Shown here: one piece after another, positions 21,115 to 26,617 of the stretch
Numbering within the stretch: position 1 is the first letter of the stretch
Layout of the letters: each line of letters begins with the position of its first letter
Assembly: GCA_965243025.1 (NCBI GenBank)
Contig: CBDETY010000003.1
Location: forward strand, 3,936,001 to 4,000,000
Length of the DNA: 64,000 nt
Direction: 5' to 3'
Source of the DNA: Candidatus Latescibacterota bacterium
GTDB taxonomy: Bacteria; Latescibacterota; UBA2968; UBA8231
Notes under the pieces: generated by a model
Seen by the model: the letters and a program-made list of their open reading frames with translations, nothing else
Told to the model about the DNA's origin: nothing
The model's database searches: none
Made by a program: the position numbers and the translations under genes

Positions 21115-21473
21115 CACCAATTCCCCCTTCGTATTCGTTCTGTACAAGCTGTAAGGTCGTGAAGAAAGGCGTCAAGAAACATCTTGATCGAAATGGGCGG
21201 AAGCGTTGCAGATCACCGGGCGGAAGCAAGGCCGCCGCCGGTCTCGACGGGCGTCTCGTCGAGCCGGGTGCGGCAATCGTCGCTGGGAAGCTCGTTACCG
21301 GGATGATGGCGCCCGTCCGAAATTAACTACATACACTCGAATACCCCTTGCCTTGCAACGAGTTAGGCCAGGGAAGCCGAATTAGATCAGTCCATTGACT
21401 CTATCTGTGCCGCCGCATGGTTGAAGAGTCCTTGCGGAAGCCTGATCTTCCCGATTCCTCCCCCTTGGAGATC

Positions 21474-22658
21474 ATGCTGACCACCGAACAATTACAGGCG
21501 TTGATGGCAGACGGTGAATCGGACCGCGTGGCGCTGACGACGTCCACCAGGGACACCGATAAATTCGCGCAGGCCATCTGTGCCTTTGCCAACGACTTCC
21601 CCGATCACCGGCAGCCGGGCTATCTCCTTGTAGGCGTGCACGACGACGGCAGAGCCAGCGGTCTGTCCGTCGATGATCGACTGTTGCGGGACCTGGGGGA
21701 ACTGCGCTCAAACGTCAACCTAGAGCCGCTCCCGGTGATGACCGTGCAGAAGTGCACGTTGCCCCAAGGGGAAGTGGCCGTGGTGGAGGTGCTTCCATCC
21801 GAGCTGCCTCCCGTCCGCTACAAAGGCAGGGTCTGGATACGGGTCGGACCTTCCCGGCGCGGGGCGAACCAGCAGGAAGAGCGCATTCTCACGGAGAAGC
21901 GGACCGTTTTCCAAAGGCCCTTCGATGCCCGGCCCTGCCAAGGCTGCACGCTTGACGAACTGGTCCTGGATCTGTTCCAGGTAAGCTACCTTCCGGCGGC
22001 GGTGGCTCGTGACGTAATCGACGAGAACGAGCGAAACACCCCTGAACAGATGGCATCCCTGCGCTTTTACGACCTTACCGCCGACTGTCCGACGAACGCC
22101 GCCGCCTTGCTGTTCGCCAAGAGGCCCCTGCACTGGATTCCTGGAGCCTGGGTTCAATTCGTCCGTTGGGCAGGAACGACGATGGCCGACGAACCGGTCG
22201 GCGAGAAGAGATTCAGCGGGGACTTGCTCACCCTTCTGCGCGAGCTCGAAGCGTTCATCACGGTTCCTGCACAGTCCCGTCCGGTGGCAGAATCGGCTCT
22301 GCGGGACCGGGCTGAGAGCGACTACCCGCAGGTGGCCATCCGAGAGTTGCTGTTGAACGCAATCATGCACCGTTCCTACGAGTCAAACGCACCCGTACGG
22401 TTTTACTGGTACGATGACCGCATGGAAATCCAGAATCCAGGGGGGCTGTACGGGATGGCCTCTCCGGAGAACTTCCCGAGGCAGACGGATTATCGAAATC
22501 CGGTCATAGCGGAGGCCATGGCGACGTTGGGCTATGTCAACCACTTCGGTCGAGGCGTCATCAGAGCGCAGGATGCCTTGCTGAAAAACGGGAACCCGGA
22601 AGCGGAATTCACCTTCGAGCCCGCCAACGTGCTGGCCACCATTCGAAGAAAGCCATGA
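21474..22658 (+). CDS. AlbA_2 (Schlafen-like) domain plus HATPase_c_4 ('RecG-like') protein
   Basis: ESDRV, ICAFAND, LLVGVHDDG, ELLLNAIMHRSY, EIQNPGGL, RNPVIAEAM, GRGV. Confidence 0.85.
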   Translation: MLTTEQLQALMADGESDRVALTTSTRDTDKFAQAICAFANDFPDHRQPGYLLVGVHDDGRASGLSVDDRLLRDLGELRSNVNLEPLPVMTVQKCTLPQGEVAVVEVLPSELPPVRYKGRVWIRVGPSRRGANQQEERILTEKRTVFQRPFDARPCQGCTLDELVLDLFQVSYLPAAVARDVIDENERNTPEQMASLRFYDLTADCPTNAAALLFAKRPLHWIPGAWVQFVRWAGTTMADEPVGEKRFSGDLLTLLRELEAFITVPAQSRPVAESALRDRAESDYPQVAIRELLLNAIMHRSYESNAPVRFYWYDDRMEIQNPGGLYGMASPENFPRQTDYRNPVIAEAMATLGYVNHFGRGVIRAQDALLKNGNPEAEFTFEPANVLATIRRKP

Positions 22659-23644
22659 AAACCGTCGCTTTCTTCAACAACAAGGGAGGAGTCGGCAAGA
22701 CGACTCTGGTCTACCACCTCGCCTGGATGTACGCCGACCTCGGCATGTCGGTTGTCGCGGCTGACCTCGATCCGCAGGCGAATCTGAGCACCATGTTCCT
22801 GAGTGACGACCGGCTCGAGGAGTTGTGGCCGGATGGAGATCATCCGGAAAGTATCTACGGATCGGTCTCCCCGATCCTTCGCGGTCTTGGTGACATCGAC
22901 GACCCGCACGTAGAGGTAATCCTTGAAAACCTCGGCCTTCTGGTGGGCGACCTTGGTTTAGCTCGGTTCGAAGCCAGGCTCTCCTCCGCATGGCCCGACT
23001 GCATGAACCGCGACGAGGCGGCTTTCCGCACCGAGTCCTCCTTCCATCGAGCAATTCTGAAAGCGGTAGAGATACGGGAAGCCGATCTGGTATTGATCGA
23101 TGTCGGCCCCAACCTGGGAGCGATCAACCGCGCGGCGATCATTGCAGCCAATTTCGTCGTTTTCCCGCTCGCCCCGGACCTGTTCTCGCTGCAGGGACTT
23201 CGCAACCTCGGGCCGACTCTGCGCGATTGGCGCAGCCAGTGGCAGGATCGCATGGATCGACGTCCCGACGACCCGAACCTGCCCCTGCCTTCAGCCGACA
23301 TGAAGCCGGCAGGCTATACAGTCATGCAGCACGCCGTGCGGTCGGGGAGTCCCGTTCAATCATACCAGAGATGGATGACCCGCATTCCCGGTGTCTATCA
23401 CAAGGAGGCCCTCGGGGAAGATGCCCCAACGGCCTCCTCGACGGATGACGACCCCGAATGCCTCGCTACGCTGAAGCACTACCGCAGCCTGATGCCGATG
23501 GCCCAGGAAGCGCGGAAGCCGATGTTCCAGCTCAAGGCCGCGGATGGGGCTCTCGGTGGTCATATCCACGCCGTGCAGGACTGCTACGCCGATTTCAAGG
23601 CACTGGCGGAATCGATAGCTGACAAGTGCGGAATCGAGCGGTAA
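22655..23644 (+). CDS. ParA/Soj-family ATPase
   Basis: FNNKGGVGKTT deviant Walker A, DLDPQANL, IDVGPNLGAINR; ATGA overlap with upstream gene. Confidence 0.9.
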   Translation: MKTVAFFNNKGGVGKTTLVYHLAWMYADLGMSVVAADLDPQANLSTMFLSDDRLEELWPDGDHPESIYGSVSPILRGLGDIDDPHVEVILENLGLLVGDLGLARFEARLSSAWPDCMNRDEAAFRTESSFHRAILKAVEIREADLVLIDVGPNLGAINRAAIIAANFVVFPLAPDLFSLQGLRNLGPTLRDWRSQWQDRMDRRPDDPNLPLPSADMKPAGYTVMQHAVRSGSPVQSYQRWMTRIPGVYHKEALGEDAPTASSTDDDPECLATLKHYRSLMPMAQEARKPMFQLKAADGALGGHIHAVQDCYADFKALAESIADKCGIER

Positions 23645-23857: not shown

Positions 23858-25618
23858 TTACTCCCGGATCCCTATGTGGAGTTCCCGCAACTGCTCAGGC
23901 GAGACCTCGCCCGGTGCGCCCATGAGCGGATCCTGCGCATTCTGGTTCATCGGGAAGGCGATGACCTCCCGGATGTTCGGTTCGTCCGCCAGCAGCATGA
24001 CGATGCGGTCGATGCCGGGGGCGATGCCGCCGTGGGGCGGAGCGCCGTAACGAAAGGCGCGGATCATTCCCCCGAACCTGCGATCCACTTCCCGCCGCGC
24101 ATGTCCGGCAATCTCGAACGCCTTGTACATGATGTCCGGCCTGTGGTTGCGGATGGCACCGCTCGACAGTTCGAGGCCGTTGCAGACGATGTCGTACTGA
24201 TACGCCTTGACCTCCAGCGGCGGTTGCGTCTCCAGCGCAGCCATGCCGCCCTGCGGCATGGAGAACGGGTTGTGCGAAAAGGCCACGCAAGCGCGTTCCT
24301 CGTCCCATTCGTACATGGGAAAATCGACGACCCAGCAGAATTCATAACAACCCTCCCGCCGCAGGTCGAGCCGGTCTGCCAGATGCAGGCGCAACCGTCC
24401 CGCCAGGGCCGCTGCCTCGGATGGCGCGCCGGCGATGAAGAAAACGGCTGACCCCGGAGCGGCTGCGCAGTGCTCGAAAATGCGGCTGCGCACGCTCTGT
24501 TCCAGGGCGGCGGCAAATGATCCTGTGGCCTGCGCTCCGTTGATTAGGTAGGCCAGCCCCTTGCCGCCCGCCTCTTTGACGAATGCTTCGAGGCCGTCGA
24601 AAAACGAGCGCGGCTGCCCTTCCATCTCAGGAACGCACAGGGCGCGGACGACCCCGCCTGCTGCGACGATGTCCCCGAACAGCCTGAACGAGGAGTCCGC
24701 GAAGATCCCGGTGAGGTCCTGGATTTCGAGACCGAAGCGCAGGTCTGGTTTGTCCGTGCCGAACCGCAGCATGGCGTCGGCATGGGAAAGACGCGGGAAC
24801 GGCGGCGCGGTCACTGCCCAATCGGTGAACTCGCGGAAGAGACCGGAAAAGAGTTCCTCGACCACGGCGAAGACGTCCTCCTGTTCGACGAAGGCCATCT
24901 CGAGATCGAGCTGGTAGAATTCGCCGGGGGAGCGGTCGGCGCGGGCGTCTTCGTCGCGGAAGCAGGGCGCGATCTGGAAGTAGCGGTCGAAGCCGGACAC
25001 CATCAGCAACTGCTTGAACTGCTGCGGCGCCTGCGGCAGCGCGTAGAAGCGGCCGGGATACAGCCGGCTCGGCACGAGGTAATCGCGCGCGCCCTCGGGC
25101 GAACTGCTGGTGAGAATGGGCGTCTGGAACTCGGCAAAGCCCATCTCCGTCATGCGCCGCCTGATGCTGGCGATCACTTCCGAGCGGAGCTGAATGCGGC
25201 GGTGCAGCCCTGCCCGGCGCAGGTCCAGGAAGCGATAGGACAAGCGGGTGCTCTCCCCCACTTCGGGATCTTCGGCCACGGAAAAGGGGAGCGGCTCCGC
25301 CGGCGAGAGCACTTCCAGCTCGCGAACGGCGATTTCCACTTCTCCCGTCTCCATCGCGCTGTTGACGGTCTCAAACGACCGTTCGCGCACGTCGCCTGCG
25401 ACGCTGATTACGGATTCGCGGGGGACCTTTGACGCGATTGCCGCAGCGTCATTGTCCGGCAAGATCACGAGCTGGGTGATACCGTAGTGGTCGCGCAGAT
25501 CCAGGAACAGTATGCCTCCGTGGTCCCTTTTGCGATGCAGCCAACCGCTCAGGCGAACGGTCTGGCCGGCGTGGCGCTTGCGAAGTTCGCCGCAGGTGTG
25601 GGTGCGATAGCGGTGCAT
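23858..25618 (-). CDS. aspS: Aspartate--tRNA(Asp/Asn) ligase
   Basis: [45 protein letters not shown]; SD GGAGGT before ATG 25618. Confidence 0.97.
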
Positions 25619-25646
25619 GGCCACCTCCAGTTTTTGGATGTACATG

Positions 25647-25680
25647 AAAAACCGCCGTCGGCGCGAGGCTCAACGGCGGG
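25647..25680 (-). terminator. Attenuator terminator 2 directly upstream of aspS
   Basis: Minus strand CCGCCGTTG-loop-CGACGGCGG followed by TTTTT. Confidence 0.8.
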
Positions 25681-25702
25681 TTGGGGTGAGAGTGTAATCC
25701 GA

Positions 25703-25795
25703 TCACGGCCAACGCCATCGAGCCCGAATGGCGGGATTATTGTCGTCGTTGTCATGCGAAATAGCGCGTGCCGTGTGCTTGTAGCGAAATGTCAT
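25703..25795 (-). CDS. aspS leader peptide 2 (MTFRYKHTARAISHDNDDNNPAIRARWRWP*)
   Basis: SD TAAGGAG 8 nt upstream; six consecutive Asp/Asn codons; followed by a terminator. Confidence 0.8.
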   Translation of the reverse strand: MTFRYKHTARAISHDNDDNNPAIRARWRWP

Positions 25796-25809
25796 CTCGT
25801 AAACTCCTT

Positions 25810-25850
25810 AAAACAGAAAACCCGCCGCGATGCGTGTTCGCGACGGGTTT
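25810..25850 (-). terminator. Attenuator terminator 1 in the aspS leader
   Basis: Minus strand AAACCCGTCGCGA-loop-TCGCGGCGGGTTT followed by TCTGTTTT. Confidence 0.8.
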
Positions 25851-25879
25851 GGGATTCTCGGATTCGGTTGGAGCAGTCG

Positions 25880-25966
25880 TCAGAACACGCGTAATGGGGC
25901 GATCGGATTATTGACGCCGGCGTTGGCTGGATAATTCTGCCTGCGGTCTTTCTGACGGGCCATCAT
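25880..25966 (-). CDS. aspS leader peptide 1 (MMARQKDRRQNYPANAGVNNPIAPLRVF*)
   Basis: Starts 8 nt after a -10 box; 4 Asn + 1 Asp; NNP at residues 19-21 exactly as in leader 2; followed by a terminator. Confidence 0.65.
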   Translation of the reverse strand: MMARQKDRRQNYPANAGVNNPIAPLRVF

Positions 25967-25974
25967 GCTCTTGC

Positions 25975-26003
25975 AACGTATGAGGAGGGCCGCACTCCGT
26001 CAA
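25975..26003 (-). promoter_or_regulatory. Sigma70-type promoter of the aspS leader
   Basis: TTGACG-17 nt-TACGTT on the minus strand. Confidence 0.7.
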
Positions 26004-26014
26004 ACCCGCTTCCT

Positions 26015-26485
26015 TCAACCGCCGGATGCGCCCACTTTCCCGGAACCTCCCATCAGGGAACTGCCGTCGACGCGGGATGCCATCTCGTCATCCCGGTTGA
26101 AGAGCGAGCACGACCGCAGGGACAGGCAGCCGCAGCCTATGCATCCCGTGAGGTTCTCTTTCAACCGCTCGAGCGTCTCAATCCGCTCTTCCAGCTGATC
26201 CCTCCAGCCCCTCGACAGGCGTGCCCAGTCCGCCTTGTTCGGTGTGCGCCCGTCCGGAAGCGTGTCCAGCGCTGACCGGATTTCCCGGAGCGGCACTCCG
26301 ATTCTCTGGGCGGCCCGAATGACGGCGACGCGGCGCAATACCGCCTGTCGATACCGGCGCTGGTTCCCGCCGGTCCGCTCCGAGGCGATCAGGCCCTCGG
26401 CTTCGTAAAACCGCAACGCAGAGGTCGCGACTCCGCTTCGCGCCGCTACGTCCCCGATGGTCAAAGTGGGTGAAAGTGGTGCCAC
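26015..26485 (-). CDS. soxR: Redox-sensitive transcriptional activator SoxR
   Basis: MerR HTH 'IGDVAARSGVATSALRFYE', GNQRRY, CIGCGCLSLRSC [2Fe-2S] motif. Confidence 0.95.
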   Translation of the reverse strand: MAPLSPTLTIGDVAARSGVATSALRFYEAEGLIASERTGGNQRRYRQAVLRRVAVIRAAQRIGVPLREIRSALDTLPDGRTPNKADWARLSRGWRDQLEERIETLERLKENLTGCIGCGCLSLRSCSLFNRDDEMASRVDGSSLMGGSGKVGASGG

Positions 26486-26495
26486 AAGGTTTTCC

Positions 26496-26526
26496 TTGAC
26501 TTCAAGTATACTTGAAGTTGCAGATT
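26496..26526 (+). promoter_or_regulatory. SoxR operator within a long-spacer promoter
   Basis: Perfect palindrome ACTTCAAGTATACTTGAAGT (26499-26518) resembling the sox box CCTCAAGTTAACTTGAGG; TTGACT-19 nt-CAGATT. Confidence 0.85.
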
Positions 26527-26617
26527 CGATCCAGGCTCATCCGAAGAGCCTGCCTTACCGGCTTCGGTGACCTGGAACCAGGGAAGCGGATGCCGGAAAC
26601 ACCGAAAGGAGAAAACC

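Follow-up and report, generated by a model that had tools for sequence, protein, structure and literature searches.

The minus strand of a 64,000-nucleotide stretch of the genome of a Candidatus Latescibacterota bacterium (assembly GCA_965243025.1, contig CBDETY010000003.1, positions 3,936,001 to 4,000,000; hereafter the window, with coordinates counted from its first letter) carries aspS2, a gene for an accessory aspartyl-tRNA synthetase (AspRS), and two short leader open reading frames (ORFs) that precede it in tandem, each followed by a transcription terminator. The element nearer to aspS2, which we call proximal, is our main subject. A first-pass annotation, made from the letters alone, had described it as an attenuator in which four segments pair alternatively as 1:2, 2:3 and 3:4, with a ribosome stalled at Asp and Asn codons deciding the outcome. 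The parts of the proximal element and the gene that follows it are these:

25804..25809, minus strand: AAGGAG Shine-Dalgarno sequence (SD) of the proximal leader, read from the sequence and conserved in alignment A1 of the orthologous proximal elements.
25703..25795, minus strand: proximal (type B) leader ORF, MTFRYKHTARAISHDNDDNNPAIRARWRWP*, 30 codons, taken from the ORF list and present as 16 orthologous elements.
25758..25775, minus strand: segment 1', a candidate anti-antiterminator, predicted by minimum free energy (MFE) folds to pair with segment 2 in ribosome-free RNA.
25736..25753, minus strand: run of Asp and Asn (D/N) codons, GAC AAC GAC GAC AAU AAU (D N D D N N), read from the sequence.
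25727..25733, minus strand: segment 1, CGCCAUU, the 5' arm of the 1:2 hairpin (folding, -10.2 kcal/mol).
25709..25725, minus strand: extended segment 2, GGGCUCGAUGGCGUUGG, the 5' strand of the antiterminator, which includes GAUGGCG (folding, shuffled sequences, orthologs).
25666..25684, minus strand: extended segment 3, CCAA-CC-CGCCGUUGAGCCU, the 3' strand of the antiterminator, which overlaps the 5' arm and the loop of the terminator (folding, shuffled sequences, orthologs).
25647..25679, minus strand: proximal intrinsic terminator, a 9-bp stem (25679-25671/25660-25652) with two inner pairs, followed by UUUUU at 25651-25647 (folding).
25624..25628, minus strand: GGAGG SD of aspS2, read from the sequence and conserved in alignment A1.
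23858..25618, minus strand: aspS2, an accessory AspRS of bacterial type (ORF; Pfam domains tRNA_anti-codon, tRNA-synt_2 and GAD).

The annotated SD, leader ORF and six D/N codons at 25753-25736 are present letter for letter on the minus strand, and the core segments CGCCATT (25733-25727), GATGGCG (25719-25713), CGCCGTT (25678-25672) and GACGGCG (25659-25653) lie exactly where they had been placed, with the U-run after segment 4 at 25651-25647. The AAGGAG motif stands 8 nt from the leader ATG, and the leader ends with a UGA at 25705-25703. Segments 3 and 4 can pair as proposed, in a terminator hairpin of -19.0 kcal/mol whose UUUUU lies 28 nt 5' of the aspS2 ATG; we set that start at ATG 25618, because the in-frame ATG farther upstream, at 25645, does not keep the frame in close orthologs. 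When both strands of the entire 6.8-Mb genome were searched for a small ORF with an N/D codon run and a terminator, the proximal element was the one match. A cmscan search of 25000-26600 at E values up to 10 found no match to a T-box or to an Rfam leader family, those for His, Trp, Thr, Leu and Phe leaders included; only two matches were returned, to CrfA (E 0.68, on the distal terminator) and to Collinsella-1, both at chance level.

The antiterminator is considerably larger than had been described. Drawn as 7 bp, the 2:3 pairing is worth -8.6 kcal/mol; that pairing is possible, but the helix actually extends over 17 bp with a 2-nt bulge, joining 25725-25709 to 25684-25666, and has an energy of -30.1 kcal/mol as a hairpin and -27.9 kcal/mol as a duplex. 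It reaches into the terminator loop (GGCUC:GAGCC) and into the region upstream of segment 3 (UUGG:CCAA), and it uses the 5' arm and the loop of the terminator, so that the two structures are mutually exclusive. None of 2,000 dinucleotide shuffles of the 3' half of the leader reached the energy of the duplex (mean -16.3, standard deviation 2.8), and at equilibrium 2:3 is the strongest element of the proximal leader. Because the helix is so much longer than described, an inability of 2:3 to compete with the terminator is excluded in silico; it is the terminator that is outweighed.

The 1:2 hairpin fares less well. It is real, with 7 bp that are kept in 15 of the 16 orthologous elements, but it falls short of 2:3 by about 20 kcal/mol and by these energies appears too weak for the part of main anti-antiterminator that had been given to it; its role is doubtful. 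A long-range helix between segment 1' (25775-25758) and segment 2 is worth -22.7 kcal/mol as a duplex and is present, together with the terminator, in the MFE structure computed with no ribosome. This 1':2 helix is plausible in the window, and we retain it as a candidate only. It would form before segment 3 is transcribed, and untranslated RNA should therefore terminate.

The position of the ribosome was represented by a footprint model in which the sequence is cut away as far as 13 nt beyond the A-site codon's first base and the remainder folded, with no pairing across the ribosome. The predicted probability of the terminator does not exceed 0.004 while the A site is on N20, the last codon of the run, or on any codon before it; it rises to 0.8 at P21 and is 1.0 from A22 to the stop codon. 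When the offset of the leading edge was varied from 10 to 16 nt, the switch remained no more than one codon from the end of the D/N run. Folding with simulated ribosome footprints had been named as a check on the annotation, and its outcome, in which the antiterminator gives way to the terminator no farther than one codon from where the run ends, supports on this model the proposed trp/his-type geometry. Taken with the folding energies, the shuffles and the 16 orthologous elements, it also favors the proposal that a ribosome stalled at the Asp and Asn codons would leave segment 2 free. A variant that permitted pairing across the ribosome gave the terminator at A-site codons 18-20 by way of the upstream segment, and was rejected as sterically implausible.

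Comparison of the 16 orthologous type B elements in alignment A1 indicates what has been conserved. The consensus leader reads MTF(R/Q)(H/Y)KHTA(R/Y)AF(S/A)(H/N)NN(D/N)DNNPAIRARWRWP*, and the N/D run is always present, in the forms DNDDNN, NNDDNN, NNNDNN, NDNDNN, NSDSNNN and DDNN; it comprises 4 to 7 N/D codons, always including 3 to 5 for Asn, and has undergone synonymous changes and exchanges between N and D. All cells of the terminator (100%) are paired, with three pairs changed on one side. For the antiterminator 97.8% of cells are paired and two pairs are compensatory, a score that 6 of 500 shuffles equaled. The 1:2 hairpin has 96% of its cells paired, with one pair changed on one side and no compensatory change, and the 1':2 helix 88%, with no covariation across the orthologs. 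In the footprint test 12 of the 16 elements are predicted to switch directly after the last N codon, two (L114 and L118) are intermediate and two never switch. A scan of metagenomes with a loose pattern added no diversity: it matched at least 121 stretches, and among the 80 loci listed two had a downstream terminator and one was a true element, and this single true element among the matches listed is identical to L006, a divergent ortholog already in the alignment.

Fourteen of the 16 proximal leaders share one and the same C-terminal peptide tail, RARWRWP*, which closes with Pro-UGA, and one could suppose that the nascent peptide or a translation inhibitor, rather than the charging of tRNA, brings about stalling here, much as in ErmL or TnaC. 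We consider this quite improbable. The nucleotides that encode the tail are those of segment 2, and in 15 of the 16 elements they are invariant even at third codon positions, which argues for a constraint on RNA pairing; moreover, the divergent ortholog keeps its N/D run despite a different tail (TRTRFRVP*). An arrest at the stop codon, finally, cannot induce aspS2, because a ribosome in that position covers segment 2 and favors termination.

Support for the design of the proximal element comes independently from the distal one, which lies upstream of it in the window together with a putative promoter:

25998..26003, minus strand: proposed -35 box, TTGACG, of the leader-aspS2 promoter, suggested by alignment with orthologs.
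25975..25980, minus strand: proposed -10 box, weak, with the sequence TACGTT, 8 nt upstream of the ATG of the distal leader, suggested by the sequence and by orthologs.
25880..25966, minus strand: distal (type A) leader ORF, MMARQKDRRQNYPANAGVNNPIAPLRVF*, Asn-rich, taken from the ORF list and present as 28 orthologous elements (alignment A2).
25876..25890, minus strand: 5' strand of the distal antiterminator, GCGUGUUCUGACGAC, which includes the leader stop codon and pairs with 25846-25834 (duplex energy, shuffled sequences).
25810..25850, minus strand: distal terminator, a hairpin (25850-25818) with a U-rich tail (terminator scan; 13 pairs, 8 of them GC).

In this element the last codons of the leader, together with its stop, pair with the 5' arm and loop of the terminator. 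The resulting antiterminator duplex has an energy of -21.2 kcal/mol, against -11.5 +/- 2.4 for shuffles, one of 2,000 being as strong; on alignment A2, 95.5% of its cells are paired, with three compensatory pairs and a score reached by 0 of 500 shuffles. The distal terminator has 94.7% of cells paired and two compensatory pairs. The distal leader is almost purely Asn, with QNNNN in most of the 28 elements, and equilibrium folding predicts a switch past the Asn run for roughly half of them. Orthologs show a promoter-like TTGACG-16 nt-TATCTT directly before the type A ATG, which a promoter scan finds in L117. Since no more than about 8 nt separate the ATG from the proposed -10 box, the mRNA of the distal leader is probably leaderless. 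A MerR/SoxR-like regulator with a C-terminal CIGCGCLSLRSC motif is encoded at 26485-26015 on the same strand and stops 12 nt before the proposed -35 box; this neighborhood upstream of the leader is not conserved in relatives.

The leaders belong to aspS2 and travel with it. When 110 aspS loci were scanned blind, 8 of the 9 aspS2-clade loci in that first set had an N/D-rich leader ORF that ended 72 to 104 nt before the start, and the ninth, L007, was flagged at -9 because its start had been mis-estimated; among the other aspS loci an ORF was flagged in 6 of 101, all six ending more than 150 nt upstream. Two types of element occur upstream of aspS2, the distal type A (28 elements) and the proximal type B (16 elements). 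The window, G004, G021 and most of genus g14 have both types, arranged in tandem, and the remaining loci have type A alone. The genes farther upstream vary among genomes, whereas leaders and terminators accompany aspS2 in about 30 of them. The proximal element is the second of two tandem attenuators before aspS2. The two types look like diverged duplicates; whole-genome nhmmer searches with the A1 and A2 alignments found no further copy of either element and no similarity between A and B.

The proximal unit is missing from six g14 loci, namely L112, L123, L125, L126, L129 and, in a different manner, L127. Five of the six read ...TAGGAG-(G)CTACC-ATG, and it looks as if the unit was lost by deletion between two GGAG Shine-Dalgarno motifs; a contig in the public run X1 shows a like joint on the window, where 25804 skips to 25620. 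A different arrangement is found in genus g13 (L135 and L136; L007). There the N-rich tract (…VDNNGDNNNQGNNN…) extends the C terminus of a full-length ORF for a LysRS-like class II synthetase, and this ORF stops immediately ahead of a terminator and aspS2, so that what corresponds to the "leader peptide" seems to be the last part of the protein encoded upstream.

Could the hairpins be no more than ordinary terminators of the upstream MerR/SoxR-like gene, with the small ORFs arising by chance? The failure to match an Rfam family is in keeping with that possibility, as are two further results that weigh against our interpretation: the scan of the window itself called no promoter-like site, and the MFE of the whole region is ordinary compared with shuffles (z -0.69). 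An ordinary value is expected of a switch with competing folds, and for that reason it is no positive evidence either. Even so, on the comparative data a locus without regulation seems very unlikely, to the point of being hardly credible. The leaders and terminators accompany aspS2 behind different upstream genes; the N/D run, the SD and the helices are conserved; the signature is unique in the genome; and the antiterminator is not reproduced by shuffles.

Several other observations count against the attenuator as we describe it. Both compensatory pairs of the proximal antiterminator come from a single divergent ortholog, L006 (genome G021), and the other 15 elements cannot test compensation in 2:3 because they are too alike. 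The two elements that never switch, L006 and L128, are predicted by the equilibrium model to form the terminator at every ribosome position. At L128, aspS2 is interrupted by an in-frame TAG and the distal leader, too, is broken; in L006 the terminator is very strong (-26.8). The antiterminator duplex of L006 is, in addition, barely better than shuffles (92 of 2,000), and it does form in a transcript truncated before the 3' arm of the terminator. The distal element of the window is likewise predicted to form the terminator throughout, and because the equilibrium model makes this prediction, that element needs a kinetic argument.

Two RNA-library runs contain contigs about 90% like the window, covering 25201-25839 and 25602-25773, and both contigs bridge the proximal terminator. 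They come from relatives, and uncovered stretches carry no meaning. We count them neither for nor against attenuation, because contigs show no ends, strand or level and DNA may have been present in the libraries.

On balance, it seems likely that the proximal element is a ribosome-mediated transcription attenuator sensing Asp-tRNA(Asp) and Asn-tRNA(Asn), the second of a tandem pair before a monocistronic aspS2. From the ORF and the helices, their strength relative to shuffles, their conservation and their geometry, all observed in silico, we infer that the leader is translated, that ribosomes stall on it and that polymerase reads through, as follows. The transcript would begin just upstream of the distal Asn-rich leader, and polymerase that had passed the distal terminator would transcribe the proximal leader with its separate SD. 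Given ample charged tRNA, the ribosome would proceed to the UGA at 25705-25703 and mask segment 2 (25725-25709), whereupon segment 3 would pair with segment 4 and transcription would end at the U-run (25651-25647). When Asn-tRNA or Asp-tRNA is scarce, the ribosome would stall within DNDDNN (25753-25736) with its leading edge short of segment 2; the 17-bp 2:3 helix would then form first and hold the 5' arm of the terminator, and polymerase would enter aspS2. If the leader were not translated at all, segment 1', the 1:2 hairpin or both would capture segment 2, and transcription would terminate.

The regulated gene had been called simply aspS. It does encode an aspartyl-tRNA synthetase, but it is the accessory paralog, and the housekeeping aspS lies elsewhere in the genome, which we denote G000 and which is 96% complete. 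The two aspS copies encode proteins that are 43% identical; the other gene, at G000:C3:1603930-1605678, corresponds to 514-2346 of locus L139, on the minus strand. A gene of this AspRS1 type was found in 41 of the 41 genomes first searched. The aspS2 product, AspRS2, has the OB-fold, class II core and GAD domain. Its gene is present in 33 of 76 genomes of the order, spread over 8 of 18 genera, and a phylum-wide protein search placed it in 33 of 168 genomes, all within one family; the same search found it in 0 of 92 genomes of 13 other families of the phylum. The closest outside relatives are 50-62% identical and come from records largely labeled Alphaproteobacteria (including Sphingomonadales), with some from Victivallaceae, Planctomycetota and others, and the gene was apparently acquired horizontally. 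In some relatives aspS2 is decaying, with an in-frame TAG in G062 (L128) and in G081 and mere fragments in G019, G006 and G016; L128 also has a premature TAG in its distal leader and two mismatches in its proximal antiterminator.

The gene is convergent with its downstream neighbor and is therefore monocistronic; a scan for terminators 3' of aspS2 found none. The convergent genes, on the plus strand at 21417-23644, encode a Schlafen/AlbA_2 plus HATPase_c_4 protein and a ParA/AAA_31-type ATPase, and are unrelated to the attenuator.

What purpose would be served by inducing a second AspRS when Asn-tRNA is scarce? The genome encodes AsnRS (asnS, 472 bits, over the cut-off) and gatB, also with a score over the cut-off. 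A search of G000 with the asnB model returned nothing over the cut-off, the best score being 101.9 bits against 267, and a search of the same genome for asnA gave no match. The weak asparagine-synthase match (model positions 114-502) belongs to a 617-aa open frame at G000:C3:4816941-4818026, which probably encodes an AsnB-like paralog of different function and could qualify the statement that there is no asparagine synthetase. The genome has one tRNA-Asn, which carries U1-A72, a pair required by bacterial GatCAB according to PMC4206432.

Across the 76 genomes of the order, 25 have aspS2 only, 30 have asnB only, 8 have both and 13 have neither, counts that come from kin that are not independent and from some genomes that are incomplete. 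In genus g14, aspS2 is found in one of 5 asnB-positive genomes and in 20 of 26 asnB-negative ones; in genus g18, the three aspS2-positive genomes all lack asnB and the four asnB-positive genomes all lack aspS2; and in genus g1, G000 has aspS2 only, G002 asnB only and G001 neither. The largely complementary distribution of aspS2 and asnB suggests that aspS2 boosts the tRNA-dependent supply of Asn.

Such a function would call for an enzyme of the nondiscriminating (ND) kind. The anticodon domain of AspRS2 has a His (in RKRDHGG) aligned with the His of the ND enzymes of Pseudomonas aeruginosa and Mycobacterium tuberculosis, where Escherichia coli has Leu. The His and Gly sites of the P. aeruginosa anticodon domain are, we take it, the residues tied to recognition of tRNA(Asn). 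Among the 32 of 34 aspS2-clade loci that could be read, the His is present in 32 of 32, whereas at the second site 25 have E, 5 have A, and D and G occur once each; the outside relatives, too, mostly have His together with E or D. The best matches in the PDB do not separate an ND from a discriminating AspRS2.

Three points tell against such a role for AspRS2: its second site is Glu, which corresponds to Gly in the two ND enzymes and to Lys in E. coli; both ND-associated residues, His and Gly, are found in the housekeeping AspRS1, which judging from these residues may itself charge tRNA(Asn); and 13 of the 76 relatives have neither aspS2 nor asnB while 8 have both. The attenuator could accordingly be real and aspS2 nonetheless a back-up or inhibitor-resistant discriminating AspRS with no special part in Asn synthesis, induced by any starvation or poisoning of AspRS1 (a natural mimic of aspartyl-adenylate could be the poison) in the manner of auxiliary antibiotic-resistant synthetase paralogs. 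Such a function would suit an accessory, patchy and apparently horizontally acquired gene, found in 33 of 168 genomes of the phylum and in one family, whose nearest outside relatives, about 60% identical, are from other phyla; it would suit the Asp codons of the proximal leader, and it would agree with the presence of both ND-associated residues in AspRS1 already. We nevertheless think a back-up enzyme unlikely. Asn codons dominate, the distal leader being almost purely Asn and the proximal run always containing 3 to 5 of them, which makes no sense for an enzyme that charges tRNA(Asp) alone; aspS2 and asnB are largely complementary; and no genes for inhibitor biosynthesis or immunity adjoin aspS2.

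It is mainly the dominance of Asn codons in both leaders, and in addition the complementarity with asnB, that leads us to suppose that AspRS2 charges tRNA(Asn). That AspRS2 attaches Asp to both tRNA(Asn) and tRNA(Asp), so that the switch would raise the synthesis of Asn-tRNA(Asn) by GatCAB in a lineage lacking asparagine synthetase, is a proposition for which we judge the chances to be even.

Leader-peptide attenuators are familiar from the amino-acid operons of E. coli and Salmonella (trpL, hisL, pheL, leuL and thrL). They also precede aminoacyl-tRNA synthetase genes, as at E. coli pheST with its pheM leader, and in Streptomyces coelicolor a Trp-codon attenuator stands before trpRS1, an auxiliary, second copy of its synthetase. 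The aspS2 element resembles the classical attenuators, of which pheL is one (PMC3082878), in its short ORF with a run of cognate codons, its intrinsic terminator, a mutually exclusive antiterminator and the decisive position of the ribosome. It departs from them in that the leader codons specify Asp and Asn and the target is a tRNA synthetase paralog rather than a biosynthetic operon, in that 2:3 is much stronger than the terminator, and in the weakness of 1:2, which is possibly replaced by an upstream partner. An attenuator before a synthetase gene is shared with both pheST and trpRS1, an accessory second copy with trpRS1 only; both differ from aspS2 in the amino acid concerned, and aspS2 has tandem attenuators and two kinds of sensed codon. 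A literature search for leader attenuators with Asn or Asp codons before aspS or gatCAB found no description of one. A motif in the 5' untranslated region of Shewanella aspS carries the label "tRNA synthetase leader" in its source, in a passage that gives no mechanism.

Counterparts of the physiology and of the tandem arrangement have been reported. In Clostridium acetobutylicum an Asn T-box controls extra AspRS and GatCAB genes (Saad et al. 2012, as cited in PMC4206432); as we propose for aspS2, an additional AspRS and a tRNA-dependent route to Asn are induced there by uncharged tRNA(Asn), but from that account the sensor is an RNA that binds the tRNA directly, whereas at aspS2 it would be a translating ribosome. 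The mgtCBR leader of Salmonella contains the tandem ORF-based attenuators mgtM and mgtP and is called a "singular example" (PMC3641672). Like the aspS2 leader it has two short-ORF attenuators in series, one of which senses charged tRNA through a run of Pro codons; as described there, the two mgtCBR signals are separate, ATP and proline, whereas at aspS2 Asn codons are common to both attenuators, with Asp codons sensed in addition by the second. An AspRS2 is described for Deinococcus radiodurans and Thermus thermophilus, where it serves tRNA-dependent Asn synthesis beside AsnRS and GatCAB and without AsnA or AsnB; the same source counts 18 genera with AsnRS, GlnRS and GatCAB but no Asn synthetase, of which five, all belonging to Deinococcus-Thermus, have a second AspRS, and it calls the acquisition of an additional AspRS by bacteria rare (PMC4206432). 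Those enzymes are presented as archaeal in type, unlike the aspS2 product, which is of bacterial type with a GAD domain.

We advance, tentatively and with slightly less than even confidence, the broader view that attenuators reading Asn and Asp codons are a so far undescribed class, and that in this family a tandem pair of them gates a horizontally acquired AspRS for tRNA(Asn), the device taking the place of AsnB throughout the family. Leader-peptide attenuation is textbook material, and an Asn- or Asp-specific case was found neither in the literature nor in Rfam; the regulation of tRNA-dependent Asn formation in bacteria is known only from the clostridial T-box. Beside mgtCBR, the aspS2 leader is a second natural case of ORF-based attenuators in tandem, and the natural variants that lack the proximal unit offer a ready-made comparison. 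If our interpretation is right, the cell would possess a simple sensor of the charging of Asn-tRNA and Asp-tRNA and would switch its only asparagine route, AspRS2 with GatCAB, according to the charging of Asn-tRNA, which would explain both the presence of two AspRS genes in this poorly studied lineage and the near-exclusion of aspS2 and asnB.

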